A stretch of 64,000 nucleotides of DNA from Cyanophora paradoxa CCMP329 (GCA_004431415.1 QPMI01000210.1:62001-126000); one strand, 5' to 3'; positions 17,623 through 64,000 are shown, counted from the first letter of the stretch. Notes: generated from the sequence alone by a model not told the origin. Numbers and translations: made by a program.

Positions 17623-20181
17623 ATGCGTCCAAAACGCTCGCGGGACGGCGAGGAGCCGGAGCTGCAACTGCCCGCGACCAGCGCCGATCCGGAACCGGAG
17701 CGGCTACAGCTTCGCGGACCCCGGCAGGTGCACGAAGCGCTCGAAAATGTGGCGCGCACAATCGACCTCATCATCGCCGCCCTCGTCTCGTTCCGCGTCG
17801 TTGACCTCAACGTTGACCTCGATGCCGTCCAGCCTCTCGCTCCCGTGCCCGACACGCTGCTCGACTCGTTCGAGCCGCGTCTATCCGTCATGGACGACTC
17901 CGACGCAGCCAGCGCGCCGCAGCCGCCGCCGCCGCGCTCGTGGAGGCTCTGGCCGCCGCCGGCGGCCGCGGAGGGCCTGATCGTGCTGTGCGCAACGCAG
18001 TGGGCCCTGCCGCCCTACCGCGTGCGCTTTTTCGAGGCGGAGCGCATTCTCGCCAACGTCGCGGCGGCCGCCGAGACTCTCCGCATCTGCCCGTCCTCCG
18101 ACCCCGAGCTGCCCTTTTGCCGCTCCCGCCTCGCCAACGCCCTCGCCGACGCCCGCCTCCTCGGCACATCTCTCTTCCGCACCCTCGCCGGCCGCTCCCG
18201 CCTGCGCGACCACTTCCGCGTCCTGCGCGAGTCCTCCCGTGCCGAGGGCAGCCCCGTGGGGGCCCGCATGGCGCGCCGCCCCGCCCCGTGCGCGCCCGCC
18301 GCGCTGAAGAGGGCGCGGCAGGTACGGGCGGTGGTGCGGGCGCTGGCGGAGAGCCTCCTGCAGCCGCTGCCTGCCCCGCCCGACGCGCCCGGGCTGCCCG
18401 GGCCCGGCTGGACCGCCTCGGACGCCGAGGTCCGGCCCCGCGCGCCCCCGCCGCCGCCCCCGCCGCCCCCGCCGCCGACGCCGAGCGCGCCGCAGGTGCT
18501 CGTCGACCATTGCTTCGCCCTCGCTCGGGTGCGTGCGCCCCGCGAGCGCGGCGCGGCGCGGCGCGGCGCCGACCGGGCGGGGCGGGGCGGTAGGGGGCGA
18601 CGTGGGAGGCCCCGAGCGCGCCGCCCGACCTGTTCGAGCTGGAATGGGCCGATGCCGAGCGGGCGCGCCCCGGGCCCCGCCGCGCGCCCCCTCCCGGCCG
18701 CCCTGACGGCCCGCCCGCGCAGCTCGCGAGGCGGGCGGACGAGCTCTCGCTGCCGTACGCGGCGGACGTCGACAGGGGCTGCCGGCAGCTGCGCGCCAAG
18801 GCGCTGTGCCTGCGGGCGTTCCTGTGGGACCAGTTCTGGCGGGGCGAGGAGGCGCTGGATGCGGCGTGCGGGGCGCTGGCGGAGCTGCGGCGGCGGCAGC
18901 TCGCCCCGGGGCCCCTCGAGGCCGAGCTCCTCTCCCGCCGCGCCATGCTCCAGCGTACGCGCCCCCGCGCCGCCCCCGCAGCCCTTCGCCTTCGCTCTTA
19001 CGCGCGCGGGCGCGCAGTGCGGCTGAGCGACTTCGCCGGCGGCTTCGCGGCGGCGGAGGAGGTCTACAGCGCGGGGGAGACCGAAGAGGAGGCCCTCTAC
19101 AGCGCCTACCTCCAGCACCGCGCCACCGGTGCCCTCCTCGCCGGCCCCCGCTGCCCCGCCCCGCCCGGCGAAGGGAGCCGCGTTCCGGCAGCGTGGGCGG
19201 CGCTGCTGAACAACGAGGGGGAGCGGGGCGTGCGCGCGGCCGACGCCGTCCTCGAAGCCGCGGAGCGCCTCGGAGAGGCGGGTCGGTGCGCGCCGCCCGC
19301 GCCGCGACCCGCGCTGGCCGGCCTCGCCCACTCCCGCCCCGCCTCGCGATGGGACGGGGGCGGCAGGCTGCTGCTGCCGTCGGCGCTGCAGGAGCTGAGC
19401 CTGGGGTGCGAGCTGGAGGGGAGCTGGCGCCGCGTCATCGGCGTCTTCCGCCGCAATCTGGCCAGCTTCGAGCAGGCGCCCGCCCGCCCGCGCCCGCGCG
19501 GCCCCCGCGCCCCCCGCCCCCACTCCGCCTCACCCCACGCCGCGCACCGCGCGCAGCTCGAGGACCCGTCGCTTCCCGTGCACGACATGTGCGCCCCCTA
19601 CAGCTTCATGAAGTGGATCGTGCGCCCCGGCGTCTGCTGCCGCCCGCCCCCCCCGCCCCGCCCCGCCCCGCGCTCACCCGCCCTCCCGCGGCAGTCGCCC
19701 AGGGCGAACCTCTCGGCGACGCGCGTCATCATTTTCCTCCTGCCCAAGGTGCGCAGGCCAAGGGGCGCGGGGGCGGGACGGCGGTCCACATCGCGAACGA
19801 CGCACGGCTCTGCGCGGGCGCGTAGGGCTGGGAGGGCCGCCGCGTCTCCCCCATCGTCGCCCACGCGCACATGTACGCCGCCGAGCTCCTCGCCGACGCA
19901 GGTACCCCCCTGCGCTTGCTTCCCCCCGAGCGGCGTGCTGAGCGGGGGCGGCAGGGAGGACGGCTGAGGCGGCGCAGCACCTGCGGGCGGCTGTGGACGA
20001 GTACGAGACGCGCTTCCCGCACATCTACTTCGATGAGCACCCGCGGATGCGGCGCCTGCGCGAAGCCATGAGCGCCCTGCGCGCCCCGAAGGCATCCCGC
20101 CCCTCCCGCGGTCTCTCGCGTGCCCCCTGCCGCTGGCGCCTCTCCACACCCCACGCCGAGGAGGCAGAGGAGGCGGACTAA
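17623..20181 (+). CDS. Spliced hypothetical protein
   Basis: Long protein-like first exon (VHEALENVARTIDLIIAALVSFRVV..), further exons split by typical short introns, last exon DEYETRFPHIYFDEHPRMRRLREAM, stop at 20179-20181. No family recognised. Confidence 0.5.
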
Positions 20182-20330
20182 TTATGTAATAAGTATATAT
20201 ATAGGAGGGCCATCAATGGGCCAAACGCGAAAAGTCAACTCCGAGAGCTCGAGACTCGGAAGTGACGCTTGGATTGCGGAGGTTCTTATAACCGCCGCAA
20301 CAGCTGTGGGGGTACCCCCTCCGAGGCTGG

Positions 20331-20440
20331 CGATCGCGGCGATCACGAGCCGATCGCGACCCTGGTGATCGCGATTTTCTCCCGATCGCGACCCTTTTCG
20401 ATCGCGATTTCGAGATCGGGGGCATTTCTGCGATCGCGAG
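20331..20440. repeat. Array of GATCGCG motifs with ~16-bp periodicity
   Basis: GATCGCG at 20332, 20352, 20367, 20384, 20400 and 20432. Confidence 0.75.
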
Positions 20441-20582
20441 AAAGGAAAAATCGGAAAAGGCCGAAAAGTGCGTTTTTCACGCGTGAAATCGATCGAAAAC
20501 GAGGGTTCGAATCCGTGGTCCGGATTTGGACTTGGGCAAAATCTCGAGTCAAAATGGGAGAAAATGGGACCTAGGACCTTGG

Positions 20583-20617
20583 TGCTTGATGCTTGGTGCT
20601 TGATGCTTGGGGCTTGG
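20583..20617 (+). repeat. Heptamer tandem repeat (K)GCTTG(R) x5
   Basis: tgcttga tgcttgg tgcttga tgcttgg ggcttgg. Confidence 0.8.
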
Positions 20618-20676
20618 GAAGAGTTGGAATCAGAGTCTGGACCCAAAAGCGGGGAAATTTTCGGACGGGGAGAAAA

Positions 20677-21147
20677 ATGTCAGGCAATCTCTATTACGAT
20701 TTTCCCTTTGAGTTGAATATGGCATTCGAGAGGTTGCGCGAGTTCTGGCGTTGGCACCTCACAGGACATGACATTCCCGACATAACACCAGAGCCCAACA
20801 CACAGGGCGTGCTTGAAGTCATCCGTCAATATCCGCGTCGATTCAATGAATGGATTGAGTTCCACGCAACGAACCGTTTCCAGAGTCTCCCCGAGGCCAT
20901 ACGCGAAAATTTCGTGAGGCTGGTGGGACCAGGCTACGACAACCCTAACAATCATAGACCACGCCCAGCTGGCGTGACGCGCGAAGCTCGAGAAGACCGT
21001 AGACTTTTCCGCAGGGAATTGAGAGAGGATAGACGGAGGCTTTCAATGGGGCTCCCGCAGATTGTGAGGGGGTACAGCCCGGATTACGAGACTTACCAAG
21101 AATTGTACGGCTTCGAAAATCCCTTTGAGAGGGTACTACCAGGGTGA
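20677..21147 (+). CDS. Intronless hypothetical protein (156 aa) in the viral-like island
   Basis: ATG at 20677 follows an A-rich context. Balanced composition (MSGNLYYDFPFELNMAFERLREFWRWHL..) and codon use that is AT-richer than host genes. Confidence 0.6.
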   Translation: MSGNLYYDFPFELNMAFERLREFWRWHLTGHDIPDITPEPNTQGVLEVIRQYPRRFNEWIEFHATNRFQSLPEAIRENFVRLVGPGYDNPNNHRPRPAGVTREAREDRRLFRRELREDRRRLSMGLPQIVRGYSPDYETYQELYGFENPFERVLPG

Positions 21148-21487
21148 GGGGCCAGGGGGGGCCCCTGAGGGTGTACCCCCGGCCCGAGACTCGACCTTCG
21201 GCGGACGCACTCGGGCGATTTCCGTCAGGCCGGCTCCCTTTTTCTGCCTTCGGCCCAACGCTAAATTTGGCTTTTTTCAGGCCAGTTGGCAACGTTTTCC
21301 GTTGCGAACTAGACCGCGAAAAAAATCGCCCACAAAACCGCGGTCCGCCGCCATTTTGGCTCACTCTTGAAACGGGTTCGCCGCCTTCTCTCAGCCCAAG
21401 GAATCCCCGCCTCTCCGAATTTTCACAAGTCCGCTCTCTCAGTCACCTCACGTTTTGCCTTTGCTGATCTCTCTTCCCTTTGCGCAG

Positions 21488-21810
21488 ATGTCGATTCCCT
21501 CTGAGCTTGTCGAGGACCTTGCCAAGGCCCGTGAGATGTGGGCTAAGTCCCGCGATTGGCCTACCCGTGAAATGGAGAAGCGTGCCCGCAAGCTGGGGTA
21601 CCTCTACCAAGCTCACAGCGGAGAAGGCTTCCATACCATCAACCTCAACTTTGTATCCATACCACTGCATCGCAGACTGCAATTCAGACAGCCTTCCAGG
21701 CCATCGTCCGGAACACGGAGAACAGGCAGATTGCCATGCTCGCGGAAACGAACGCCCGGAAGGCGGAGATGTTCGACCAAGCAGCCCAGGCGCTCCGACT
21801 CGGCCAGTAA
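21488..21810 (+). CDS. Hypothetical helical protein (~99 aa) requiring a 23-nt intron or a frameshift
   Basis: MSIPSELVEDLAKAREMW..NLNF joins in frame to TAIQTAFQAIVRNTENRQIAMLAE..LRLGQ* if 21653-21675 (GT..AG) is removed. Confidence 0.4.
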
Positions 21811-21832
21811 TTTCTGAGGCACGCGCAAGCAC

Positions 21833-22162
21833 ATGGCAGCGGTGGAGGCGACGCTGGGCGAGCAGATCGAGGTGCGCTGGGGTCGCTTCCTCGACCTGCT
21901 GGAGCCGGAGGCCAAGGAGCCGGGGGTACGGGCACAGATTCAGTCCCTGCGCGGCATAGGCGCCACGGCGGTCATCGTTCTATTTAGGAGGCACATCAAC
22001 GCGGAGGCCGAATTCATTAAGGCACGGGACGATCAAGTTTTCGCGAAACTGCCGCAGGAGTACGCCTCGGCCGTGCGCTCGCTCTTCTACGGGAGCGGGC
22101 CCGAGCTGCGCGAGAAGCTGTGGCTTTACATCGAGCTCTTCGTCGAGCTGACGTCGGAGTAA
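21833..22162 (+). CDS. Small helical protein resembling a conserved Nucleocytoviricota hypothetical family
   Basis: Intronless 109 aa. The FIKARDDQVF...ELREKLWLYIELFVEL pattern recalls the I..RDE.FF...KE.IW.YL..L family of large DNA viruses (recognised from memory). Confidence 0.6.
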   Translation: MAAVEATLGEQIEVRWGRFLDLLEPEAKEPGVRAQIQSLRGIGATAVIVLFRRHINAEAEFIKARDDQVFAKLPQEYASAVRSLFYGSGPELREKLWLYIELFVELTSE

Positions 22163-22185
22163 ATTTCTAAGGGGCAAGCGTAACC

Positions 22186-22989
22186 ATGGACCCCTCTTCC
22201 ATGCTGGGCTTCGACGCGCTGGCCGTGGACGGGCCGAACCCCGTGGGGATCCCGCAGCCTCGGAAGAAGGGCCGCCCCGCGAAGGAAGGCAAGGAAAAGG
22301 GCGAGAAGGCGCCGAAGGCCGACAAGACGGCGCTGCCGGGCGACGGGCCCACGGTGCCGCCGACGGCGCCGAGCAAGGGGGCGAGCTTCAGCGTGCAGGA
22401 GCACATCGAAATGACGAAGAAGAAAGAGCAGAGCGTGAAAAAGGCGCTGGGGATCGACCTGCAGGAGAAGCCGCGCGACGAGGCGCAGACGGATGTGGAC
22501 GAGAAGAAGCAGGTTCTGCGTCAGATCGCGCAGTACAGGCGCTCGTTCGGGGGCGAGCTTACGTCCACGAAGAAGCTGAGCCTCGCGACGCCGCTGGACG
22601 AGCTGAAGGAAGAGTACGAGGAAATTCAGCGCGAGCTGAGCACGCGGGGTTCGCTGGAGGCGGCGCGCCTCTTTCTGATCGCGGGCATGCACTCGCTGGA
22701 GCACCTCAACAAGGCGTACGATCCGATCGGCCTGAAGCTCGACGGGCTCGGGCAGGCGACGCTCTCTTCGATGGACCAGGTGCAGCCGATCTTAGAGGAG
22801 CTGGTGATCAAGTACTCGCGCTACGTGACCCTGGGGCCCGAGGCGCGCCTGGGGATGGCCCTGGTGCAGACGGTGCTGGCGGTGCACGCGGCCAACGCGA
22901 ACCCGGAGATGATAAAAGAGGTGACGGAGGCGGCGGCCTCGACGGCGGCGGAGCCCAAGGCGGTGGGCGGCAAGTTCAACGGCCTTTGA
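22186..22989 (+). CDS. Nucleocytoviricota conserved protein, DUF5767-like
   Basis: Intronless 267 aa. LDELKEEYEEI..SLEHLNKAYDPIGLKLDGL..ILEELVIKYS..LGPEARLGMAL..VHAAN parallels the NCLDV motif series EM..EYE..IEFLN..FDPF..KLDGW..FEEL..KY...PE.RL...H (from memory). Confidence 0.7.
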   Translation: MDPSSMLGFDALAVDGPNPVGIPQPRKKGRPAKEGKEKGEKAPKADKTALPGDGPTVPPTAPSKGASFSVQEHIEMTKKKEQSVKKALGIDLQEKPRDEAQTDVDEKKQVLRQIAQYRRSFGGELTSTKKLSLATPLDELKEEYEEIQRELSTRGSLEAARLFLIAGMHSLEHLNKAYDPIGLKLDGLGQATLSSMDQVQPILEELVIKYSRYVTLGPEARLGMALVQTVLAVHAANANPEMIKEVTEAAASTAAEPKAVGGKFNGL

Positions 22990-23043
22990 TTGTAAACGCT
23001 TGTAATCAATTGCACCAGAGAATTTACAATTTATTCGTCTAAA

Positions 23044-23826
23044 CTACTGCATGGGGGTGGTGTACATAGACTCGGGGTTTAGGTAGGGCTCGAAATCGGC
23101 CTCGTTGTCGTAGGGCTTGAAGGCCAGCTCGGGCGTGCGGCCGGCGAAGCGAAAGGCGCCGACCTTGCACTGCTGCACTGCGAGGAAGGACCACTTGAGG
23201 CCGAACTTGCCCTCGGGGATGGCGTAGGCGGTGTCGATTTTAACGAGGGCCGCCACCAGGTCTCCGGTGCCGATGGTGGCGCGCTCGGTGATGAGGTAGT
23301 TGGACATGTCGACGACTGGGATCGTCTTGCGCTTGCCCGCCATCGTCTGCGTGCGGATGCGCATGTTGAGGTACTTGTAGAAGGCCTGGCCCGACTCCTT
23401 GTCGACCTTGATGCGCACGCTGGGCGTCTGCAGCACCGAGATCTGATCCTTGGAGAGGGCGCGCCCGGGCGAGACCTTGAGCTTGGCCTGGTTCTGCTGC
23501 ACGAACTCGCAGAATTTCGCGTCCAGGGCCTCCAGCAGCTTGAGGAACTCGTCCGCGGCTGGGTTCGTCTGGCCGTCGACGGCGCTGAGATCGGTGAGGT
23601 CCAGCGTGTAAAATCCGCCGTTTTCTTCCATGACGAAGGCCTTCTTCTCGTCGCTCCAAGCCTTGCCTTGCTCGGTGTTGATGCAGGGGTTGATGGTGAC
23701 CATGGGCGGCGCGTACATCATGAGGCCCTGCAGGCCGTCGTACTTGGCCTTGATGCGGCCGTTGGCATCGATTTCGAAGGCGAGCTTGGCGGGGTCGATC
23801 TCGGTGGCGCTGCGGACGGTGGCCAT
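23044..23826 (-). CDS. NCLDV-type single-stranded DNA-binding protein (DUF2738 / T7 gp2.5-like OB fold)
   Basis: Intronless 260 aa with FLKLLEALDAKF, PSVRIKVDKESGQAFY, GDLVAALVKI..GKFGLKWSFLAVQ and an acidic/aromatic C-terminal tail, the motif order typical of this SSB family. Confidence 0.75.
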   Translation of the reverse strand: MATVRSATEIDPAKLAFEIDANGRIKAKYDGLQGLMMYAPPMVTINPCINTEQGKAWSDEKKAFVMEENGGFYTLDLTDLSAVDGQTNPAADEFLKLLEALDAKFCEFVQQNQAKLKVSPGRALSKDQISVLQTPSVRIKVDKESGQAFYKYLNMRIRTQTMAGKRKTIPVVDMSNYLITERATIGTGDLVAALVKIDTAYAIPEGKFGLKWSFLAVQQCKVGAFRFAGRTPELAFKPYDNEADFEPYLNPESMYTTPMQ

Positions 23827-23936
23827 GGTTGCGTTAGCTTAGAGTGTGCTTCAGCCTAAGGCTAGAAAATATTTGAGGTCGCCCCGCCCGACTTCAGCTG
23901 AGCGCTCAGGTGATTCAGGTAAAACACGTGTTCAAT

Positions 23937-24221
23937 TCAGCTCACTGGGGAGGGGAGGGCCTCGATCACGGCTACGCGAATATTCGAGAGTCTAAATCTG
24001 GCGCTGGGGCTGGCGACGGCGTACAGGGTGATCTCGTTCTTGGCGGGATTGAGCATGATGTGCTGGAAGCAGTCGCCCTTGCGGCACTCCAGCGAGATGT
24101 TGCGCAGCAGCCTGCAGTAGTTGAAGCAGATCTCGCCGTTCTCGTCGAGATCCTCGTCCATGGCCTCGTACTCGAAGATGCCGAAGGTGAGGCAGCAGGT
24201 GAAGTACTTGGGGGCGCACAT
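23937..24221 (-). CDS. Small intronless hypothetical protein (94 aa), viral-like island
   Basis: Clean ORF with consistent codon use, preceded by the same upstream motifs as its neighbours. Confidence 0.6.
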   Translation of the reverse strand: MCAPKYFTCCLTFGIFEYEAMDEDLDENGEICFNYCRLLRNISLECRKGDCFQHIMLNPAKNEITLYAVASPSARFRLSNIRVAVIEALPSPVS

Positions 24222-24352
24222 TCTCTCGTTTGCTTGCTGATAAAGTGTGAGGAAACGAGGCCCCGCGCACCCTCTTAAGGCCCCGCGTCAGGTGAGCTTC
24301 AGACAAAGCCAGAAAACACGTGTTCAATTTCAGAGGGGCTACACTGTCAATT

Positions 24353-24835
24353 TCAGCACGGCTGCGGGATCTTGGCCTCGAGATCAAAGGTAATCGACCT
24401 ATCGTCTATGCTAAAGGGATAATCGCACTGCTGGTGCAGCTGGTCGCGCTTGACGACCATCGAGCCCATCGCCCTGCGCGTCACCCAGATGTCGCACTCG
24501 TCGTGCTTGCCGAAGAAGGTGTAGGCAAGGGCGCGGCCCGAGGGCGAGATCGCCGCCCAGAACGCGGCCCACTCCGGCACGACGACGGTGTCGGAATTCA
24601 GGCGCCCCGCGGCGAAGGTGATGATGCCGGCCGTGTGCCCAACGTGGGTCTTGATGCAGGAGATGAGGGTGAAGGAGAGGCCATCGTCGGCGAGCTTCAT
24701 GAGGAGGGTCTTGCCGGGGCAGTCCCTGCAGTCGTAAACTACGCCGTGCTTGAGAACTTCCACCTCGCGTTCGATGGGCTCGCCGATCACGCGCACGGTG
24801 TATTCCTCGACGTTGAACTGGGCGACAAGGGCCAT
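24353..24835 (-). CDS. Intronless hypothetical protein (160 aa), viral-like island
   Basis: Clean ORF with beta-rich composition, preceded by a TATA-like element and TCAGGTGA repeats. Confidence 0.65.
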   Translation of the reverse strand: MALVAQFNVEEYTVRVIGEPIEREVEVLKHGVVYDCRDCPGKTLLMKLADDGLSFTLISCIKTHVGHTAGIITFAAGRLNSDTVVVPEWAAFWAAISPSGRALAYTFFGKHDECDIWVTRRAMGSMVVKRDQLHQQCDYPFSIDDRSITFDLEAKIPQPC

Positions 24836-24867
24836 GTTGCCTGCTGGTTGCGTTGAGAGAGATTGAG

Positions 24868-24964
24868 AGTGTGAGGGGAACGCCGCGTGCCGCGCGCTTA
24901 TAAAGGCCGTTCAGGTGAGCGCTCAGCTGAGGGTCAGGTGAGCGCTCAGCTGACGTTCAGGTGA
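24868..24964 (-). promoter_or_regulatory. Putative island promoter: TCAGGTGA/TCAGCTGA repeats, TATA-like element and CACACT
   Basis: tcaggtgagcgctcagctga at 24911-24930 and 24934-24953, a third TCAGGTGA at 24957, and TTATAA near 24898-24903. The same motifs occur upstream of 24221 and 23826. Confidence 0.55.
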
Positions 24965-24982
24965 GGGCAACTTGAAAATTCG

Positions 24983-25034
24983 GCGTCATTTACGTCCGCG
25001 TCATTTACGTCAGCGTCATTTACGTCACGGAGTT
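24983..25034 (+). repeat. 52-bp direct repeat copy 1 (3 x GCGTCATTTACGTC, 15-bp period)
   Basis: Identical to 25814-25865. Confidence 0.92.
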
Positions 25035-25121
25035 GGGACTCGGCCCTGGCCCCGGGCCCAGGCCTCGCCCGTAAAAAAAAGGACTTGGACTTGGCGCCAT
25101 TTTCTAAAGCTCTGCTGTACC

Positions 25122-25505
25122 ATGGAGCCCGCTATCTCCCAGCTAGTCTCTCAGGGCGCCAAGCTCGACAAGGCCCTGAACATCTACCTTCAGCTGATCG
25201 AGCTGGCCTGGCCCGAGCCAATGATAGCTCAGGCCTGCAAATCGCTCCACGTGGCGTTCGATGCGCCGTTCTCAGGTGACCCGGATCAGGTGACATCCTG
25301 GACCAAGGAGGAGATAAAGGCCGACTTCGAGGCGCTTTTCTCATTTATGAGCAAGAAGTATGCCGAAATCGAAGCAGCTAAGGCCTCAGCAGCCGAAGGC
25401 GGTGAAGCCCCAGCCGAAGGCCCTGCCGGCGACGAAGGCACCGAAGTTCAAGGCGCTGGGCCCTCTGCAGAGGGCGAAGGCCAAGGCAGACCTGCGTCCG
25501 CGTAG
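25122..25505 (+). CDS. Hypothetical protein (127 aa) with an acidic tail, between the 52-bp repeats
   Basis: MEPAISQLVSQGAKLDKALNIYLQLIELAWPE..; intronless; starts ~90 nt after repeat copy 1. Confidence 0.55.
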   Translation: MEPAISQLVSQGAKLDKALNIYLQLIELAWPEPMIAQACKSLHVAFDAPFSGDPDQVTSWTKEEIKADFEALFSFMSKKYAEIEAAKASAAEGGEAPAEGPAGDEGTEVQGAGPSAEGEGQGRPASA

Positions 25506-25767
25506 CCCCAAGGAGATAGCCAAGGAGGCCAGCAGCCACAGGCCCGACTGGCCGGCGCCGGCGCCCTACCGCTACCTCAAGCTGGACAAGAGCAACGATA
25601 CGGGCTTCACCAGGAGGAGGTGGCCTGAGCCCCTCAGGTGGCTGGAGCCAAGGGAGATCAAGTCCGGAGGCGGTATCGAGCTAGCGCTAGCGCTGGGCGG
25701 CGGCGGTGCAGACTTGGAAGAGCAGGCCCTGCTAGATACCATCAACTTGGGCCAGGTAGAGCTGTGA
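25360..25767 (+). CDS. Possible overlapping basic (Lys/Pro-rich) protein (135 aa)
   Basis: ATG-initiated ORF overlapping the previous ORF by 146 nt in another frame. Its unique 3' part (RPDWPAPAPYRYLKLDKSNDTGF) looks protein-like. Confidence 0.35.
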   Translation: MPKSKQLRPQQPKAVKPQPKALPATKAPKFKALGPLQRAKAKADLRPRSPKEIAKEASSHRPDWPAPAPYRYLKLDKSNDTGFTRRRWPEPLRWLEPREIKSGGGIELALALGGGGADLEEQALLDTINLGQVEL

Positions 25768-25813
25768 TATCTAGCTAGCGCTAGCGCTTGCTGAATTAAT
25801 TAACCGAAGGGTC

Positions 25814-25865
25814 GCGTCATTTACGTCCGCGTCATTTACGTCAGCGTCATTTACGTCACGGAGTT
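25814..25865 (+). repeat. 52-bp direct repeat copy 2 (3 x GCGTCATTTACGTC)
   Basis: Identical to 24983-25034, with degenerate similarity continuing ~55 nt downstream. Confidence 0.92.
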
Positions 25866-25939
25866 TGCCGGCGACTCGGGACCTGGGCCAGGGCCCGAGA
25901 AAAAAAATTCGAGACTTGGAAAAATAGGGTATCCCTAAT

Positions 25940-26083
25940 ACCGCTAGTACCAGTTAGTACCAGTAGCTACTAGTACCGCTAGTACTACGTAGTACTACTT
26001 AGTACTACTACTGTACTACTTAGTACTACTACTGTACTACTTAGTACTACTTGCTCAGTACTACTAGCTACCGGTACTGGTAC
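25940..26083. repeat. GTAC/TAGTACTAC low-complexity minisatellite
   Basis: Repeated agtactac units, including a 21-bp tandem unit (gtactacttagtactactact). Confidence 0.8.
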
Positions 26084-27108
26084 ACCTTTTTGGCAGGAGT
26101 CGTTGTCCATGGAGCGCATGCCGGGGCGCCGCCGCCTTGAGCTTCGGCCTCCGCCCTCCTGGGCCTCTGGCCCCCCGGCCCCCGGCCCGCGGCAGCCGTC
26201 GCCCCGGCCCCCATCCGGATCGCGGGGCGGGATGCCATGATGCCTATAGACCCGGGGCGGGATGCCTCATGATCACCGAGTCAGCTGCGCACGCCCGTGC
26301 GCTCGACAGCGTTAGCGCTAGCGCTAGCGCAATACAGCGCTCGCCCGCCGCCCAGTCGCTCGAAGCGCTAGCGCATCTAGCGCTGCGCTAGCGCTTGCGC
26401 ATGCATGCAATTGTCCCCGCGCCGGCTCGAGCTTGACTCAGTGAGCTTGAGTGCCGTCACGGCTTGATATTTCCTCTACCCCCACTTCGGGCTTCACCTC
26501 CCTACCCCTGCGTCCAACTTTTCAAACTTTCTCTGCGCATTCCTCCCGGGCATGGTGCAGATGGCGATCACACCATCATGCGTGCCATTGATGGTGTGAT
26601 GGCGCGCGCAGGGCATCTACGTTCGTCAGCCTCGGAGCTGCGTCCCGCGCCTGCGGATTCGCTGTCTCGAGAACAAGCCTCAGCTCAGCACCTCGGCGAA
26701 GAAGGCCCTGCGGTGCACGGAGGACGCGTGCAGGGGCGCGATGATGCTGCTCGCTTCGGGGCAGCAGGCTCGTGCTGCGGCGCTTCTGCGGGTTCGTGGA
26801 GAAAGAGTTTTAAATTCCAACCCGCCCGCTGCGCCGATCAAATCGGGCTCGCATTGACTTTCGCGGCGTCGCGCAGCGCGCGCTAGGCTTGGGCGCGGAC
26901 GAGGCCGCTTCTGCCGTGAACCGGCTTGGTGAGCAGCTCAGCGGCCTGATCGTCGGCGGACACGGCCAACGCGCCTGATCATCTCTCATGATCACCTTTC
27001 AGCTCATTTCCTTGCTCTTTGTACTTCACACGTCAAGCTAGGCCGTTTGTATAAAATGTACAGTTGAATATCTGCCTTCGAACGTAGCTTCGGCGGGCAG
27101 CTGCAGCC

Positions 27109-29234: not shown

Positions 29235-32200
29235 CTAGGGATCACCCCGACTTGGCGCGGCGGCGCTTGGTGGGGGCGGCCCCGCCGGCGGGGGCCTCCC
29301 CGCCGGGCTCCTCGCTGGCGCCCTCGGGGGCGGCCGGCCGCTTGCCGTTGCCCTCGCGCCGCTGCTTCGTGCCGCTCTTCTCGCGGCGCCTGCGGGAGGG
29401 CTCCTCCCCCGCCTCGGGCTCGCGCTCCTCGGGGGCCGAGGCCGGGGGCGGCGTCTCCTCCGAGGGCGGCACGTCGAAGTGCACCCGCTTCGCCGTCCCC
29501 TGCGCCCGCCCCCCGCCCCCTCCTTCTCCTCCTCCTCGTCCTGCGCGGCGACCCGCACGCCGACGACCGCCCGCACGACCGAGGCCGCCCCGCCGGCCAC
29601 GGCGCTCGCCGCCGCCACGATCGCCGCCTGTGCCGCCGCCGCCCCGCCGGGAGTCCCGCCCGCCTCGCGCTCCCCGGCGCGCTTGTGCCGGGCGCTCCCG
29701 GGCGAGCTGGCGGCGGGGGATGGGCGGGCGGCCGAGGAGGCCGAGGGGGAGCCGCGGCTGGAGCCCCCGATCGAGAGCACGAACTGCGGCGTCGTCGGCG
29801 GCGCTGAAGCGGCGCGCAGGCCAGGGCGGGGCGGGGCGGACGCTGTCCCAGGAGAAGGCGCGGGCGTCGCCCCCGAAGGCGGCCCGGTCCTCCCGCTCGT
29901 GGACCACCACGAGGTCCGCCCCGGCCACCTCCTCGGCGGCGCTCAGCAGCCGCCCGCCCCCGAACTGCCCGCGCGTCACACCGGGGCGGGGCGCGGGAGA
30001 GGGGGGAGGGAGGGGGCAGGGCGCACGTCCTGGACGAGGACGCGGAGGGTGCGCCACTTATCGCGGTGCTGCTCGCGGAAGCGCTGCGTCGCCGCCACCC
30101 GCTTCCCCTTCAGGGCCGACTCCTGCGGCGCCTCCCCGTACCGCGTCTCCTCCAGGAAGCTGCGGGGCGCTGAGGGGCGGCAGGGGCGCCGGCTCGAGGC
30201 GGGCGCACCGGCCGGCGCGGTGCGAGGCCTCGAGCCACTCGACGGGGAGGAGCCAGCGGCCCGTGAGCACCCCCGCGAGCGTCTTCACTGCGCGCGCCAG
30301 CGCGCCTCGAGGCCGGCGGGAGGAGGCAGGGGCGGCGGGGCCGGCGGGCGGGGCGCGGCGCACGCGTGCGGGCGCCCGGCGGGGCGACGAAGTGCGTGGC
30401 GCGCTCGTCGATGGTCTGCCCGCTCGTCTCCGCGGCGACCTGCGCCGCCATCGGGCGGCCGCTGGGGAAAGGAGCGGGAAGGGTGCGGACCTCGCCGCCG
30501 AGGTCCCGGACCATGCGCTGGAGGCGCGCCTTGGCCTCCGCGGGGAGACCCCGCCCTCCCCTTCATCCCCGTCACCAGCACCACTGCCCGCCCCGTCAGC
30601 GCCCCGGCGTTCGGCGAAGGGCGGCGGCGCGGCGCACCCGGGACCCGCCCGCGCGAGCGGCGGAAGCTGCTGGCGGCGGCGGCGGCCGACTCGGCCGCAG
30701 ACGCCGGGCTCGCGCGCAGGCCTGCCACCGGGTGCCCGAGCCGCCGGCCGCGCTGCCCCGCCCGCCCCCCGCCGCCCGCGGGGCGCGCCTCGGGGCCCCC
30801 TCCGCATCGCCCTCCGCCCCCTCCGCCTCGTCGGAGGGGCCTCCCTCCTCCGCGCCCTCGCCCTCGCCCTCGCCCTCGTTCTCGCCGTCGCCCTCCTCGT
30901 CGGCGTCGGCGGCGTGCGCGTCGGAGCGCCGCATAGAGCGCCGGTCGATCTCCAGCACCTCCGGTGCCGCCCCCGGCCGCACGGGCGTCCGCGTGCCCTC
31001 CACGGACCCCTCCGCGCCACCCTTCTTCGCCGCCGCCGCAGCTGCGAGGCGCGCGCGGGTCTCCGCCGCCTCTGCCTCCGCCTTCGCAACGGCGGCCTCG
31101 AGGAGAGTCACCTGCGGCCCGTCAGCGCACCAGCCGCGCGCTGCGGAGGGGCGGCACGGCGCGCCTGCTCGGCCGCCGCCGTCCGTGCCGCCTGTGCCTC
31201 GGCGAGCGCGGCGATGCGGGCGGCGTCGGCCTCGGCGGCGACTGCGGCCGAGCGCTGCGCCTCGGCCTGCGCGAGGAGGAGCGCCTCGGCCGCCTGCCCC
31301 GCCGCCGCCTCCGCGAGCCGCGCCTCCTCCCGCGCCCTCGACGCCGCTCCTCCGCCTCCTCGCCCGCCGCCGCAGCTCCCCGCGCTCCTCCCCCGCCGCC
31401 GCCGCCGCCGTTGCCGCCTCCTCCTCGGCCCTCGCGGCCCGCTGCTCGGCCTCCCGCAGGCGCCCCTCCAGCTCCTCCACGCGGGCCGCCGCCTCTCTCG
31501 CGCGCGCCTCCGCCGCCTCCGCCTCCGCCGCCCGCCGCTCGGCCGCCGCCAGCGCCTCCGCCTGCGCCGCCTCGCGCTCCCGGGCCTCCTGCAGCGCCGC
31601 CTCCGCCGCCGCGCGCAGGGCCTCCGCCTCCTCCGCCGACAGCCGTGCAATGTCCGCCGCCTCCTCTGCCGCTGTAGCGCGCCCGTCCGCCTCGCGCGCC
31701 GCCCGCTCCGCATCCTCCAGCGCGGCCTCAGCGGCCGCGGCGCGCTCGGCGGCCGCGGTGCTGGCCGCCTCGGCCTCCTCCGCGGCGAGGCGGGCCGACT
31801 CCAGCGCCGCAGCGAGCGCCCCGAGGCGCGCCTGGGCGTCCAGCAGGGCTCCCTCCGCGTCCAGAGCGCGCTCCTCGGCGGCGGCCTGCGCGGCCTCCGC
31901 CTGGGCGCGCCCGGCGGCGGCGGCTTCGGCACGCGCCTCGGCCTCCGCCAGCGCCTCCTGCGCGAGCTCCTTCCCGGCCGCGAGGCCCCGAGGCGCTCCT
32001 CCAGCGCCGCCCGCTCCTTCAGCGCCGCCGCCTCCGCCGCCTCCGCCGCGCCTCCGCCTCGGCCGCCCGCCGCTCGGCCGCCGCCAGCGTCTCCGCCTGC
32101 GCCGCCTCGCGCTCCCGGGCCTCCTGCAGCGCCGCCTCCGCCGCCGCGCGCTGGGCCTCCGCCTCCTCCGCAGCGAGCCGCGCTGCGTCCGCCGCCTCCG

Positions 32201-35200
32201 CTGCCGCCGCGGCGCGCCCATCCGCCTCGCCCGCCGCCCGCTCCGCAGTCTCCGCGCGCTCGGTCGCCCGGCCCGCCGCGGCGGCGGCCTCGGCGGCCGC
32301 TGCCTCGGCCTGCTCGCGGGCGGCTTCGGCGGCGGCGCGCCGATCCTCGGCGGCCGCGAGCTGCGCGGCGGCCTCCTCCAGCGCCGCCTGAGCCGCCGCG
32401 AGGGCCGCGGCGTGCGCCGCCGCCTCCTCTTCGGCCGCCCGGTCGGCCGCCGCCCGCGCCTCCGCCTCCTCGCGCGACGCCTCCGCCGCAGCCCGCTCGC
32501 TTGCGGCGGCCGCCCGCACCGCCTCTGCCGCCGATCGGTCCGCGGCGGCCGATGCGGCGAGCGCCTCCGCGTCGGCCCGAGCGGCCTCCGCCAACTCGCG
32601 GTCCGCAGCTGCCTCCGAGGCGAGGGCCTCGGCGGCGACCCGCGCCCCCTCGGCCGCCACGCGCGCCTCCTCCGCGCCCCGCATCTGCCTTGCCGCCTCT
32701 TCCGCCGCCTGCCGCGCCACCCGCGCTGCCTCCGCCTCCTGCGGGGGGCGATCGGCGTAAGGGGGGCCACGCGGCGCCGCGGCTGCGCCGGACCCGCGCG
32801 TCGGCCTCGGAAAGCGCCTCGCGAGCCTCTGCAAGCGCCTGCGGCCGGGTCAGAGAAAAGCCGGGGAGGAGAATTCCGCCCCGGCGCACCGCCCTCGCGT
32901 CCCGCGCGTCGGCAGCTGCCTCGTCACGCGCCGCCTCCGCTGCCGCCAGCGACTCCCGAAGGCTTCCGGCGACCTGCCGCCGCGTCACGCCGGAGCCGAG
33001 AGCGCTCAGGAGGGGCGCCGCGCCTGCTGGGCGGTCTCCGTGCGGGCGCGCTCGGCGTCGAGGGCGCGGCGGGCGGCCTCCGCCTCGCCCAGGGCCGCCC
33101 GCAGCGCCTCCGCCGCCTGCAGGGCGCGGGACTCCGCCTCCCGCAGCGCCGCCCGCGCCGCCTCGAGCTCCTCTGCCGAGGGCCCCTGCGCAGCCTCCGC
33201 CTGCCCCTCCGAGGCCGGCTGCGAGGCCTGCAGCGGCGCCAGCGCCGACCCCGACGCCGACGCGGCCGGCCACTGAATGTCCTGCGTCGCGTCCTGAGGC
33301 GCGGCGGGGTCGGCGGCGCGGGCGAGCGAGGGGTTGCGCGAGAGAAGTCGAACCGAATCCAGGAGCGGGGCGCTCGGCTGCAGAAGCGCCCCCGAGCTGG
33401 CCTGCGTGCCGCTCTGGGCGGCCCCTTGGGACTGGGCGGACCCGCCAGCGTGCAAGGCCTCCAGCGCCCGCAGGCGCGCCACCTCGCCCCGCAGCTCCTG
33501 CAGCTCCTGACGGGGCGTGAGGCGGGCGGCGCGGCGCGAGCCGGAGGCCGCCCGGCCCGCGCACCGTCTGGGCCGAGACGAGCCCCTGAGCGGCGCTCTG
33601 GTTCGCTTCCTCCCGCGCCCGCAGCGCCGCCCGCGCCTCGGCGGCCTCTTTCGTGGCGTCCTCGAGGGCGGCCGCCGCCGCCTGCGCCTCGCCCCGGGCG
33701 GTCTGCAGCTCCTGCCGTGCGGTGATGTAAGGGAACCAGAGGGAATGCGAGAGGAGCGGGCCACGCACCCCCTCGAGGCGAGCAATGCAGGCCCGCAGCG
33801 ACGTCGACTCCTGCAAGGCAACCATCAGCGAGACAGGGGCGCTCGGGCCGGGCCGGCTGCGCACGGCGCCGTTGCCCTGCGCGGCGGCCCGCGCGGCGGC
33901 CGCGTCTGCGGCGGCCTGCTCGGCGGCGGTGCGGGCGGCGTTGAAGTTGCTGGCCGCGGCCGCCGCCATCTCCTCCGCCACCCGCAGCTCCGCACGAAGC
34001 CGCTCCGCTTCGTCCTGCAGCGCGGCGGCCGGCTCCGCCGCGGCCGCGGCCGCCTGCTCTGCCTCCTGCGCCCTCCGGCGCGCTTCGGCCGCCTCGTTCT
34101 CCGCGGCTGAGGCCCTCGCGAGGGCCGCCGCGAGGCGTGCATTCAGCTCCGCCCGCTCCGCGTCCGCGGCCTCCGCCGCGGCCGCCGCCTCGGGCCCGCC
34201 GTGCAGGGCCGCCTCGGCGCGCCTCAGCCGATCCTGGGACTCCTGCAGGAGCATCTGCGTGCGGAAGAGCGTCTCCTCCGCGTCCCGCCTCCCGCACGCC
34301 TCTGCGCGCGCCCGCCGCTCCGCTTCCTGCAGTTGCAGGCGTACAGCCGCGTCCACCACAGCGTCCTCGCCAGCGGGCGCGGGCTCCGTCTGCGCTTCCG
34401 CTTCTTGCACGACGCATCTAGTGCGGGCCGCGGACTCGAGCACCAAGTCCGCCGTGGCGGCGGCGACCTTCGCTTCGGCTTCCGAAAGAGCAGCCTGAAA
34501 AAGCGAAGATACAGTTACGCGCGGAGCTTGGAGAATACGACCGGGACGTACCTGGGCCAACGCAAGAGCGTCCTGCAGCGACCGTGCTTGGGAATCCGCA
34601 GTGTGCAGTTGTTCCTGAGGCGGCGCTTAGCGGCCGGGACAAAACCGCGGGGGATTGAAGGGCACCTTTAGCGCGGAATCGCTCTCTTCCTGCTGAGCTT
34701 TGAAGCGAGAAAGAGCCTCTTCCAGCTCCGCGCGAACCGCTTCGACGGCGGAATCGCGCTCCGTGGTCATCCGCGCGGTCAAGGCGTCGAGCTCGCCGCG
34801 GAGGCGCGCAGCGATCCCTCGCTCATGCTCCAGCTGACTCTTCAACTCTTGCACGCGACTTTCATCGCGTTCTTCGCCGGAGCTGCGCCTGTGTTATCAA
34901 CGCACACCAGGCGAAGGATCATCTGCCGCGGGAACTGCCCGGGCGAGGCCACACTGAACGCACTCTGCTGATCGGAACGTAGATCGCAAGGTTTAGGAGG
35001 GCGCAGCGGCGGCGGGGGAAAGGTCAGCCGATTTGAATGGATTGCGGGCGCGGCTGCGCACCGGCGAGCCTGGGGAGGTTCGCGAAAGCCAGCTGGAACT
35101 GTAGCTCTGCGAGCCGCTGCCTCAGCAACGCGCTTCACTGCGTGATTTGCGATGCACACCTGCACAGCTCTCGCGAAGTTTGTCGTTGTCTGCGAGGACC

Positions 35201-60421: not shown

Positions 60422-60583
60422 CTCGAACCTATGTGAGCGTCAGCGTAGCATAGGGCAGTGTATGGCTGCCAAATAAAGGCAGCCTTGCTTACGCACATAT
60501 GTACAAGGGGCGCACTTACAAGTTATAAGTGCGCCCCTGGGGTACAAGCCTCAGTCTTGCTTCGCAGCCAAGGCCTCTAAGCT
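60422..60583 (+). repeat. 162-bp direct repeat copy 1 (hairpin-rich, LTR-like)
   Basis: Identical to 62468-62629. Contains AATAAA in a 7-bp stem-loop and TATAA overlapping a 13-bp hairpin. Confidence 0.95.
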
Positions 60584-60589
60584 GAGGTC

Positions 60590-61680
60590 ATGGCTCGCTC
60601 GCGGAGGAGCCCATCGTGGGCCCCTCTGTTCGTAGTCGTCTTGACCATCATTCTGCTCGTCGCCTGTGCCGAGGCGGCGCAGAAACGCAAGTCAACGGCC
60701 ACTGGTGCGCGCAAGTCGGCCAAACCCAAGACGGCGACGACCCCCGCGCCCCAGGCCCGGAGGTCGTCATCTCGTCTTCAAGCTCCGGCCAACGACAGTG
60801 CGGAGGAGGAGCAGCCTGCACCTCCGCCGACGCGATCTCGCAAAGGCAAGGAGAAAGCCGTGTCGCCGGATCCGGACCAGCAGCAGTCCGACCCAGAAGA
60901 TGAACCTGAGGACGACGTTGCCGTTAGACTGGCACAGCGTGAGCAGTTCGGTGGCGCCTACGACGAGGAAGAGCAAGTGGCTGCGCGCAACTTTCCGAAC
61001 TTGGCGCAAGTGGATCCGGGCGCGGCTGGCCCGTCAACCGGCTTCACCCGTCACCTTCAAGGCCCTTATGCTGTACCCGCTGGCAACTCGACTGCCCCAA
61101 CGTCGACCAAACCGGCAGCGGGTGCGCTTCCGCCAGCGTGGGCTGAGCTACTTCAGCGTGGGATAGATAGCGCGGTCATCAAGCTTCAAGAGCAGCAGCA
61201 GCAGCAGCTCGGCGAGCAGCAGAAAGACAACCATGAGGCTATGCAGCTCAAAAACCCGTGGCTTCGTGAGCTTGCCCTGCAGCTATCGCAGCTTAAGTTT
61301 CAGCTCAAGAGATGCTCTTCGTGCACTGCGTGCTACGATCACGTAAAGCAGAGCCTCAAAATCCTCGACGAGCTCCGGAAGCGGATCGACATTCGCGACA
61401 AGGGCGGCGACAAGCTTGCCGAGCGGCTGGCAGGTGTGCCAGAGGAGTATCGGGGCACGGCTGCGGCGCTGGCGCACGCGCTCAACATTGCTGGCCCGGA
61501 GGCCGCCGGCGGGCGCCCGTATGTGCAGCACGCCAACCCGCGCCCCAGCACCAGGGCCGCGATCGCCCGCCGTCGCAGCGCAACAGCGGGATGTGTTTCC
61601 GCTGCAACAAGCCCGGGCATGTCGTGAAGGATTGCCCGAACGAGCCGCGCCCCGGCTGGCGCGACCCCCCAAGTAGACGT
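60590..61680 (+). CDS. gag-like ORF1; zinc knuckle in the -1 frame
   Basis: 345-aa ORF 60590-61627. CFRCNKPGHVVKDC (CX2CX4HX4C) at ~61594-61635 is in the alternative frame. Confidence 0.7.
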
Positions 61681-62467
61681 GCGCGCCCTTGTGTGGACGC
61701 GCAGTTTTCGTTTCGCATTTCGCTAGATACTAGTGTTTCGGTGTGTTCTTGCAAGCATAAGTATTGCTAGCATATGCAAGTGCAGTCTTCAGAAGATCTA
61801 GAGTGTGCGTGTATGCTTCCCTAAACATGCAATACATGTATTATGCTTCCATTTCATGTGATGGTGTACATGTGGCCGGGTGCGGCATTGTGGCCGGGTG
61901 CGGCATAGTCATTACCAGCCGTGGTGGCGCCGGCGTGCTGTGGCTTTATGCATTGGTCCTGTGTGCATTTGCATGTGTTAACACTGTGAAGTGTGACTGT
62001 GATTGTAGTCTACTTTTCTTTTCAATGCTAGTGGCATATATTGCCGTCTGGATGACTCCAACCTGGCAGAGCCCCAGCTGACTCCCGGCAACTGACCTGT
62101 TTCCAGCACAGGTCAGGAGTGCTGCTGGCTGTCGAGCTCCTGGCCCCTCCGGCCTTCCCGTGTGTCGCTATCGCATACTGGGCGCTCTGAAATTAACCTA
62201 GTGCATTTTGCAGGTGAGGAGTACACAAGGGTACGAAGATTCCATGATGCCAACTGTTCCCGCTGATATCGCAGGTTGGCGCATTCATCCAGAAAGTCCA
62301 TGCCTGTGCAAATGTGTTGTGGCACTGTGGGTGCATTGTGGCACTGTGTGTGCATGTGAGCTCAAGACTTGAACCAACAAGCACATTGACACGCTCACTC
62401 TTATATTCTTCATGACAAGACATGTTGTGCTTAGCTTGCTGTAAGCAAGGCTGCCGTGGCAGCCATA

Positions 62468-62629
62468 CTCGAACCTATGTGAGCGTCAGCGTAGCATAGG
62501 GCAGTGTATGGCTGCCAAATAAAGGCAGCCTTGCTTACGCACATATGTACAAGGGGCGCACTTACAAGTTATAAGTGCGCCCCTGGGGTACAAGCCTCAG
62601 TCTTGCTTCGCAGCCAAGGCCTCTAAGCT
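62468..62629 (+). repeat. 162-bp direct repeat copy 2
   Basis: Identical to 60422-60583 (offset 2046). Confidence 0.95.
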
Positions 62630-62697
62630 TCTTCCCGTTCGCGTGTCACCATCTTCAAGCCAGCGGCTGCATGGACCATCAGCTGTAGCAGTGCTAG

Positions 62698-64000
62698 ATG
62701 GGCACCGCGATAATTGGGCATGTCTGCCAATGCAAGGCCTCACCTCACTTTGCAGGAGGCTTTGTTGCATCCTGCATTCAAGCTGCAGTCCAACAGTGGA
62801 GAGCGATTGGAGCCAATGATGTCGTGCTCAACTGGATCTTGCGTGGTTTCCCTTTGTCAGGAGCGAGGCGGCTGCCAGCAGAGCGCCGGGCCAACCACAA
62901 GTCTGCGGCTGTGGACCATCAGGACTTTGTGAGAACCGAAATTCAGAAGCTTTTGCGCACGGGAGCGATCAGAGAAGTTGAAGAAGCTCAAGTGAACATT
63001 GTCTGCTCACTGTCCGTGGTGCCCAAGAAGACTGGATCCAAGTTGCGGCTCATCTGGGATGGCCGGCCTACCAATAAAGGCCTTCCGGACATCCCCTTCA
63101 AGTATGAGACTCTTGAGCATGTTGCAGCCATGCTGCGCCAAGGCTGGTACATGTTCACTATTGACCTTGAATCTGGATACCACCACGTGCCAGTCTCACC
63201 GCAAGACTGGCGGAACATGGGCTTTGAGTTTGACAGCAAATTCTATGTGTACACAGTTTTGCCCTTCGGCCTCAAGCACTCACCGTTTGCATTCGTCAAG
63301 ATCATGCGACAAGTGGTCAACTACTTCCGCCGCTTTGGCATCTTCGTGGTGAACTATGTTGACGACTGGTGGTTTGCTGCTCCAACCTACGAGAAGGCCT
63401 GTGAATTGCGGGATTTCGTCCTCAAAACATTTGCTGCCCTCAAGCTTGTGGTCAACAGCAAATCTGAGCTCACCCCAGCACAGTCGGTGGCTTTCTTGGG
63501 CTTCATAGTGGACTCCGCCCGCATGTTGTTTGAAGTACCCCAAGACAAGCTTGGTCGTCTGCTTGCTTTGATCAAAGGGCTTCTGAAGAAAAAGAAATCA
63601 GCATCTGCACGTGAAATGGCCAAGGTCGCCGGCACCCTTGTGTCCATGGCACGGGGCTTGGCTCCAGCTCGCATCAAGACCAGGTCCCTCTTTCGATACA
63701 TCAATGTCGTGGCAAGAGAATGGCATTGGAATCATCCAGTGGAGCTCACCAATGAGACTCGTCGGGAACTTGAGTGGTGGCTGGCCAACATCCACCGATA
63801 CAATGGCCGCTGCCCTATTCGGCCTGAAAGGCTCCTTGTGTTGACTACGGATGCAAGCCATGTTGGTGCAGGAGCCTGGATCACTACCCGAATTGGTGAT
63901 GCTCAACCTGTGGCTTGGGAGCTTGAGCCTGCCCCATTCCAGTGCCTGTGGAACCAAGAAGAAGCTCAGCAAATTTCGTCGTGGCGCGAGTTAATGGCAG
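62698..64000 (+). CDS. Reverse transcriptase / RNase H (DIRS-type pol), open to the window end
   Basis: Hand translation from ATG 62698 gives VVPKK..KLRLIWDGR, FKYETL, TIDLESGYHHV, VLPFGLKHSPFAF, NYVDDW, FLGFIVDS, ELEWW, LTTDAS..GA, SSWRELMA, with no stop. Confidence 0.93.
   Translation, partial: MGTAIIGHVCQCKASPHFAGGFVASCIQAAVQQWRAIGANDVVLNWILRGFPLSGARRLPAERRANHKSAAVDHQDFVRTEIQKLLRTGAIREVEEAQVNIVCSLSVVPKKTGSKLRLIWDGRPTNKGLPDIPFKYETLEHVAAMLRQGWYMFTIDLESGYHHVPVSPQDWRNMGFEFDSKFYVYTVLPFGLKHSPFAFVKIMRQVVNYFRRFGIFVVNYVDDWWFAAPTYEKACELRDFVLKTFAALKLVVNSKSELTPAQSVAFLGFIVDSARMLFEVPQDKLGRLLALIKGLLKKKKSASAREMAKVAGTLVSMARGLAPARIKTRSLFRYINVVAREWHWNHPVELTNETRRELEWWLANIHRYNGRCPIRPERLLVLTTDASHVGAGAWITTRIGDAQPVAWELEPAPFQCLWNQEEAQQISSWRELMA

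Follow-up and report, generated by a model that had tools for sequence, protein, structure and literature searches.

Among living viruses, mriyaviruses have been proposed to stand closest to the ancestors of giant viruses, and all of them encode an HUH endonuclease (PMC11253617); genes for integration are said to be absent from them (10.64898/2026.06.19.733378). The closest described family is the Gamadviridae, which includes the Pleurochrysis endemic viruses and metagenomic relatives, has haptophyte hosts, and for which PEV_20 and PEV_26 are listed as specific genes (PMC11253617). Here, these viruses are compared with a block of DNA in a 64,000-nt stretch of the genome of the glaucophyte Cyanophora paradoxa CCMP329 (GCA_004431415.1, QPMI01000210.1:62001-126000), called the window below, with positions counted from its first letter. 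An earlier note had described this block, at 20182–25925, as an endogenous viral cassette and supposed it to be a fragment or non-autonomous derivative of an undescribed large-DNA virus, or of a small mriyavirus-like relative. The block is one copy of a multicopy integrated element with four genes homologous to gamadvirus genes, and it likely descends by internal deletion from a deep-branching mriyavirus provirus of about 25–35 kb.

As in the Gamadviridae (PMC11253617), homologues of Mriya_51, PEV_20, Mriya_48 and PEV_26 belong to the element, the first three in the same order, and its parent would have been of similar or somewhat smaller size. Unlike in that family, its DUF5767 protein (the Mriya_48 homologue) is 28% identical and its single-stranded DNA-binding protein (SSB) about 27–32% identical to the gamadvirus proteins, the SSB gene is moved and inverted, the slot of Mriya_50 is without that gene, six orphan genes are present, and the element is integrated in tens of copies in a glaucophyte. 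Similarly, the Phaglo-G viruses, described as dwarf viruses like the nucleocytoplasmic large DNA viruses (NCLDVs) in Phaeocystis, are gamadvirus-related, come from an algal assembly and have short-tandem-repeat flanks (10.1101/2022.07.28.501842). Phaglo_G, at 24.6 kb, is one scaffold of unclear origin, with no deletion family described in the available text of that source; it is scored as lacking Mriya_48 and PEV_20 (PMC11253617), whereas the element has both.

Related glaucophyte sequences have been reported before, so that the word "undescribed" in the earlier note was too strong. Mriyaviricetes-related regions in a Glaucocystophyceae assembly are mentioned in one sentence (section 10, Fig. 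5f) of bioRxiv 10.1101/2025.04.19.649669, whose available text gives no copy number, termini or deletion derivatives for them and reads such insertions as mainly accidental (section 11); these regions are very likely full-length members of the family described here. Giant-virus-type endogenous elements have also been reported in C. paradoxa (PMC12344493, section 9). Cyanophora is unmentioned in the two supplements of PMC11253617, and integration in its available text, and the available text of PMC6704402 has no occurrence of "virus" or "viral". No account of the copy number, ends or deletions of the family was found in the literature covered, most subscription papers lying outside it.

Integration and extent of the element

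The viral block is integrated in a Cyanophora paradoxa chromosome, because contigs at the depth of the flanks, one covering 19680–20224 and the other running from 26061 onward, bridge the left and right outer junctions in four of four runs. In the same runs, read depth jumps inside the element relative to both flanks. The contig breakpoints place the element at 20195–26090 (about 5.9 kb), with its start near 20195–20204, boundaries that assume 31-letter words; the end given earlier, 25925, therefore falls short of the element's reach to about 26090. The alternative that the earlier note had itself raised, contamination or misassembly with reads failing to span the junctions, is answered by the contigs that cross both of them.

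The GC content over 20195–26090 is 59%, compared with 79% on one side and 75% on the other (10 kb each), in agreement with the lower GC noticed earlier. CpG content had been taken as uneroded and was considered as an age marker; this use was rejected, because the observed/expected ratio is similar in the element (1.06) and the flanks (1.07–1.13) and is thus uninformative on age or activity. The open reading frames (ORFs) named in the earlier note are present where it placed them, and the packing it called tight holds in part: eight complete ORFs are present, but they make up 64% of the element, and the leftmost 1.6 kb is mostly non-coding.

Viral genes of the element

The insert as a whole, the viral genes and the two gene remnants are as follows.

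20195–26090, no strand: whole insert, a multicopy, likely internally deleted mriyavirus-related provirus (bridging single-copy contigs, depth, GC 59%)
21488–21659, + strand: 5′ remnant, 57 codons, of an element gene of about 350 aa cut by deletion (identity to the start of protein P0086)
21667–21810, + strand: 3′ remnant, 47 codons, of a 374-aa Mriya_51-like gene (match to the C-terminus of protein P0029)
21833–22162, + strand: 109-aa PEV_20-like gene (gamadvirus family profile f1, E 7e-5; gene position)
22186–22989, + strand: DUF5767, Mriya_48 homologue, predicted virion envelope protein (Pfam E 2e-13; family f3, E 3e-32)
23044–23826, − strand: predicted T7 gp2.5-type OB-fold SSB, PEV_26 homologue (family f8, E 2e-24; fold matches)

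The labels PEV_26, Mriya_51, PEV_20 and Mriya_48 were assigned from the gene order and numbering in Table S1 of PMC11253617, which is also the source of the envelope role of Mriya_48. Among the nine ORFs scanned, DUF5767 is the one with a Pfam match above cut-off, as the earlier note had called it. The SSB call made there is likewise upheld, by the family f8 match and by the fold: a model built from 31 sequences (predicted local distance difference test score, pLDDT, 75) matches T7 gp2.5, African swine fever virus (ASFV) CP312R and Enc34 SSB (Foldseek E 1.4e-7; Z 13.0 and 12.9), and on this model the protein is a T7 gp2.5-type OB-fold SSB. An earlier four-sequence model, since replaced, had a poor fold (pLDDT 43) and no PDB match, its best Foldseek matches being nucleocytovirus proteins, and a sequence-only search of the PDB also gave no match. 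The 109-aa gene, previously described as a small conserved NCLDV-like protein, has a weak match to the small gamadvirus family f1, scoring 19.4 bits against a best of 11.1 in 1000 shuffles; it lies directly before Mriya_48, the same position as in gamadviruses. The 374-aa gene is represented in the window by its last codons, and its copies elsewhere in the host match family f0 (Mriya_51) at E 6e-9 to 1.5e-8; for instance, P0029 matches at E 1.5e-8, scoring 27.4 bits where the best shuffle reached 8.8. The Mriyaviricetes core genes Mriya_48 and Mriya_51 are thus found as a window gene and as host copies of the 374-aa gene, respectively, and the Gamadviridae-specific PEV_26 and PEV_20 are found at the E values listed, with a shuffle control.

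In six frames of the whole window, 30 + 23 family profiles gave no capsid, ATPase, VLTF3, YqaJ/PDDEXK or other gamadvirus gene, which bears out the earlier statement that the block has no capsid or ATPase. Nothing in the window matched families f19 and f27, which from their place in the gene order are taken to be HUH and HUH_long. Two further profile matches (f15 and f18) were dropped, being shadows on the strand opposite the SSB and DUF5767 genes. VLTF3/VLTF2, RuvC, PDDEXK and helicase would lie in the deleted middle of the provirus.

Relatives, gene order and phylogeny

A profile search with DUF5767 returned 1748 proteins at E ≤0.001, and the best outside matches are short forms of about 225–260 aa. 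An alignment of 24 short forms and four near sequences was used to fetch viral loci, and the nearest outside relatives of DUF5767 were 38 IMG/VR loci on contigs of 9–44 kb, one of which (L037) carries the major capsid protein (MCP), YqaJ, A32 ATPase and VLTF3. The DUF5767 match is found in 38/38 of these loci, the 374-aa protein in 37/38 and the SSB in 32/38. The order Mriya_51, small gene, PEV_20, Mriya_48 is found in 36/38, and the window has the same order without the small gene; the Gamadviridae order SSB, ATPase, VLTF3, minor capsid protein (mCP), Mriya_51 is not that of the element. Beyond the copies in the host, the relatives that could be placed are on viral contigs, which argues for the viral origin that the earlier note proposed and against its stated refuter, cellular best homologues. 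Searches of viral contigs with the near alignments, P0029 or P0265 brought up no close relatives, nor did those of metagenome contigs or phage records; tyrosine recombinase, rve and P0086 had no match in two viral records, which are too few to weigh.

Trees of DUF5767 (174 rows in FastTree; 45 of those rows in IQ-TREE quick mode; 181 columns, one gene, midpoint root) place the window protein, together with its near relatives, among the short forms and apart from the long ones, with support of 100 in IQ-TREE and 1.0 in FastTree. This grouping disfavours the large-DNA (giant) virus that the earlier note had offered as one parent. The Gamadviridae themselves are defined on MCP, and the present tree is on DUF5767. 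Because DUF5767 branches outside the Gamadviridae, the virus behind the element is probably a separate deep lineage that functions in the manner of a gamadvirus, rather than a member of that family.

Internal deletion and the parent provirus

The frame from 21488 is identical to the first 57 residues of the protein family of about 350 aa represented by P0086, while the frame from 21667 corresponds to the last 47 residues of the 374-aa Mriya_51-like protein P0029, whose gene precedes the 109-aa gene in other copies. Contigs of other copies fit 21443–21659 and then continue with different sequence. Comparison with these proteins and copies identifies a gene-to-gene deletion join at 21659/21667; the frames are therefore not all intact, as had been thought, since 21488–21817 is a deletion fusion of two broken genes. 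The earlier guess of a non-autonomous mriyavirus-like derivative is upheld.

On contig tig00000114, the left gene (g6054) is followed by g6075 (Mriya_51 fused to the 109-aa gene) and the SSB gene g6077, with 20 gene models between g6054 and g6075. More generally, 8/21 left-gene models lie ≤35 gene numbers from a right-arm gene (seven of them at 15–34), compared with 2.3–2.8 expected (p 0.001–0.003). This copy is likely an internally deleted remnant of a larger provirus that lost about 20 central genes and kept both ends, and the parent is estimated at roughly 25–35 kb from the approximately 20–30 gene models between the arms. Mriyaviricetes are characterised by genomes of 35–45 kb without DNA polymerase; in its deleted state, this copy has no DNA polymerase.

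Directly 5′ of the ATG at 21488, the stretch 21450–21487 has a branch-point-like CTGAT, a pyrimidine tract and CAG, signals which suggest that the leader of this 350-aa viral gene contains an intron.

Copy number, age and mosaicism

The element family comprises tens of near-identical copies. In the reference proteome of C. paradoxa, SSB gene models are on at least 35 named contigs, right-arm genes on at least 43 and the left gene on at least 21; in all, element genes are annotated as host genes on at least 62 named contigs, these counts being minima among the matches listed (for two clusters, 15 of 22 members). Of eight window ORFs compared with a eukaryote proteome set, five have an identical entry there, with cluster mates labelled Cyanophora paradoxa. 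Read depth is 35–100 times that of the flanks on the arms, 24–32 times on the inner remnants in three runs and 46–62 times in the fourth, and 3–6 times on the slot of a 160-aa ORF; these ratios do not equal copy numbers. The family is young, because full-length protein copies differ from the window by 1–9 residues only, and this copy is recent. Both the multicopy state and the internal deletion escaped the earlier note.

Outside the C. paradoxa proteome, SSB relatives are found at 89% and 72% identity and DUF5767 relatives at 75%, 60% and 56%, for which other glaucophytes or free viruses are possible sources. The European Nucleotide Archive (ENA) is the source of an SSB relative (P0003, 89%) and a DUF5767 relative (P0075, 75%), each on a 3422-bp contig, probably one and the same. 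Window positions 24224–24835 form a variable slot: the 160-aa ORF is present in few copies, and the adjoining 94-aa ORF has a variant of about 50% identity. With a low-copy 160-aa ORF and two 94-aa variants, the family is therefore mosaic. In addition, some copies of the 350-aa left gene (P0094, P0096) have a wholly different N-terminus on a common C-terminal part, a swap that would be a sign of recombination between subfamilies.

Termini and possible insertion mechanism

The two junctions have the following features.

20179–20203, + strand: likely stop of an upstream host exon (TAA at 20179–20181 closes an open frame), then an AT-rich (TA)n patch at the left junction
20204–20300, no strand: left terminus with three predicted single-stranded DNA hairpins (folding z, 200 shuffles)
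25935–26090, no strand: right terminus, a quasi-palindromic tandem tract of the TAGTACTA type, then CACC, then a T run (folding z −2.1 on the + strand, −4.2 on the − strand)

The insertion lies 13–22 nt past the likely host stop codon, within 20182–20203, a 22-mer equalled but not exceeded in AT content elsewhere in the 64-kb window. The element ends are GGAG...CACC. Assigning the (TA)n and T runs to the host or to the element changes the reading of the target, which comes out as A^T or T^T. The left end (20195–20300) folds with z −4.84 on the + strand and −3.14 on the − strand against 200 shuffles. No terminal inverted repeat was found, the best inverted identity over 30 nt being 13/30; the long terminal inverted repeats and 5–6 bp duplication of Polinton-like viruses with retroviral integrase are not those of this element.

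Insertion at A^T or T^T with no duplication has been reported for Helitron-like HUH elements (PMC11417382); tyrosine recombinases, which some Mriya48-carrying groups encode (10.64898/2026.06.19.733378), are likewise reported to leave the target unduplicated (PMC12220804). Like Helitron-like elements and their non-autonomous derivatives (PMC11417382), the present element has no duplication, an A^T/T^T target, a terminal hairpin and shortened copies that keep their ends; unlike them (HLE1/HLE2), it has no 5′-TC, 3′-CTRR or short terminal inverted repeats, no RepHel among its ORFs, and a cargo of viral structural and replication genes. The mechanism favoured, tentatively, is end-directed insertion in which the terminal hairpins are the substrate of the parent's HUH rolling-circle endonuclease; the hairpin ends, the A^T/T^T target without duplication and the presence of HUH in all mriyaviruses speak for it. 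Insertion by a tyrosine recombinase encoded in the lost middle is possible, and insertion by host repair is rather doubtful.

The parent would be a virus that replicates in the nucleus with the host DNA polymerase and its own SSB, and that inserts by its own ends at AT-rich spots without duplicating the target. In many copies the arms would later remain while the core, with its genes for capsid, packaging and replication, is lost. This copy has no gene for making particles or for its own movement, and it is probably silenced, because viral genes are enriched among methylated genes in C. paradoxa (PMC12344493). A further idea, which we regard as unlikely, is that the mriyavirus of this deep glaucophyte lineage acts like a rolling-circle transposon (HUH, AT-rich sites, no duplication), with shortened copies, reduced to the two hairpin ends and the SSB and envelope genes, moved or packaged in trans as non-autonomous satellites.

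Alternative explanations

Several observations weigh against a deleted, deep-branching mriyavirus provirus. In 35/35 loci the SSB gene lies upstream and is co-oriented, but in the window it is found downstream in convergent orientation; DUF5767 falls outside the clade of sampled gamadviruses (SH-like approximate likelihood ratio test, SH-aLRT, 100) and is not nested within it; the Mriya_50-position family (f2) has no match in the window and its slot is empty, although the gene may be elsewhere in full copies; and six element proteins have no match in 80 viral loci. The ends are seen in one copy only, and a 5-bp AGGAG at 20203–20207 and 26095–26099 is a possible target duplication; with about 320 end pairs scanned it was judged to be chance, and it is at odds with the contig breakpoints. 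Of the 21 listed contigs with the left gene, only two have a listed right-arm gene as well, and in one of the two, tig00000443, the left gene comes after the SSB, the wrong order for a single colinear copy; no contig among those listed spans the inner join 21659/21667. The family is known here without a full-length copy, so that the parent's MCP, ATPase, VLTF3, HUH and helicase are putative.

The branching of DUF5767 outside the Gamadviridae also fits a parent from the Mriya48-carrying groups of the size of Polinton-like viruses (Zoravirus/VC102, VC134, VC218), with its own tyrosine recombinase or retroviral integrase, which would not be a true mriyavirus. In these groups Mriya48 occurs in 47–100% of members, genomes are 20–30 kb and integrases are frequent (10.64898/2026.06.19.733378); moreover, a tyrosine recombinase would account for the missing target duplication, and Polinton-like viruses have been reported in C. 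paradoxa (PMC12220804). The additional PEV_20-, PEV_26- and Mriya_51-like genes in gamadvirus order speak against such a parent, as does the lack of inverted repeats for the retroviral-integrase type, and we consider it improbable. The scarcity of contigs with both arms, the wrong order on one of them, the unspanned join and the left-arm genes without viral match would likewise be expected if the two arms came from two elements or from a collapsed assembly, the join at 21659/21667 being a chimera rather than a deletion. This is quite improbable: on tig00000114 the two arms are correctly ordered with 20 models between them, left genes lie near right-arm genes above chance, both inner remnants are at similar depth, and each outer junction runs into single-copy host DNA. 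The rarity of shared contigs, and the wrong order on one of them, may be due to breaks of the assembly within long repeats.

Both DUF5767 and an SSB of this type are known in giant viruses, the top Foldseek matches of the first SSB model were nucleocytovirus proteins and giant-virus elements have been reported in C. paradoxa (PMC12344493), all of which would suit an accidental fragment of a Megaviricetes-type endogenous element later duplicated by the host; the place of DUF5767 among the short forms, the long ones being taken as the giant-virus type, and the sharp shared ends with single-copy flanks, unlike a segmental duplication, make this very improbable. Least probable of all, to the point of being hardly credible, is a contaminant or an ordinary host gene family, despite the fact that the closest database matches are the host's own gene models and that GC at third codon positions (GC3) of the core genes is 0.84–0.92; the junctions bridged in all four runs and the matches to viral loci largely refute it.

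Orphan genes, repeats and other features of the window

The remaining features of the element are five orphan ORFs and two repeat arrays.

20329–20440, no strand: short repeat array containing GATCGC, left non-coding arm (tandem unit, folding z −2.4)
20677–21147, + strand: 156-aa orphan ORF of the high-copy left arm (GC3 0.58)
23937–24221, − strand: 94-aa Cys-containing orphan, with a second variant of about 50% identity in other copies (no family match)
24353–24835, − strand: 160-aa orphan in the low-copy variable slot (depth 3–6 times the flanks)
24911–25027, no strand: palindromic 23-nt repeats and a 3 × 15-nt array, recurring at 25814–25858 (folding z −5.4)
25122–25505, + strand: 127-aa orphan ORF with a 146-nt overlap with the next ORF (no family match)
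25360–25767, + strand: 135-aa basic orphan ORF, multicopy in the host proteome (cluster of seven members)

The 156-aa ORF has no match in Pfam, PHROG, NCBIfam or the 80 viral loci, and its coding status is uncertain given its GC3; the 94-aa and 127-aa ORFs are also without match in Pfam, PHROG and NCBIfam. For neither P0029 nor the 160-aa ORF did the ESM Atlas yield a usable lead, and PHROG, NCBIfam and Rfam gave nothing meaningful for the element. Repeats of the block's own, which the earlier note had seen, are present. The repeats at 24911–25027 are likely to be promoter or origin elements. Of the two copies of an 82-nt repeat with a 3 × 15-nt array, one (24983–25064) precedes the 127-aa ORF, while the other (25814–25895) closely precedes the right terminal tract and has no ORF behind it.

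Elsewhere in the window, 60422–64000 is retrotransposon-like, with a perfect 162-nt direct repeat (60422–60583 = 62468–62629), a CCHC zinc-knuckle motif near 61600 (found by eye) and a reverse transcriptase ORF that runs off the window (RVT_1, E 4e-19); this layout resembles that of DIRS/Ngaro tyrosine-recombinase retroelements, and no recombinase was seen in it. A 205-nt repeat (31514–31718 and 32049–32253, 91% identical) in a long GC-rich host region is probably repetitive coding sequence.

Significance of the family

This single copy is a dead remnant, and the interest lies in the family to which it belongs. Tens of near-identical copies in a cultured alga, together with the sharp ends seen in one copy, argue for repeated, end-directed integration, and comparison of junctions across copies makes the integration mechanism testable. 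The family points to a glaucophyte-infecting lineage outside the Gamadviridae, and it could show how viruses reported to be without integration genes enter chromosomes.

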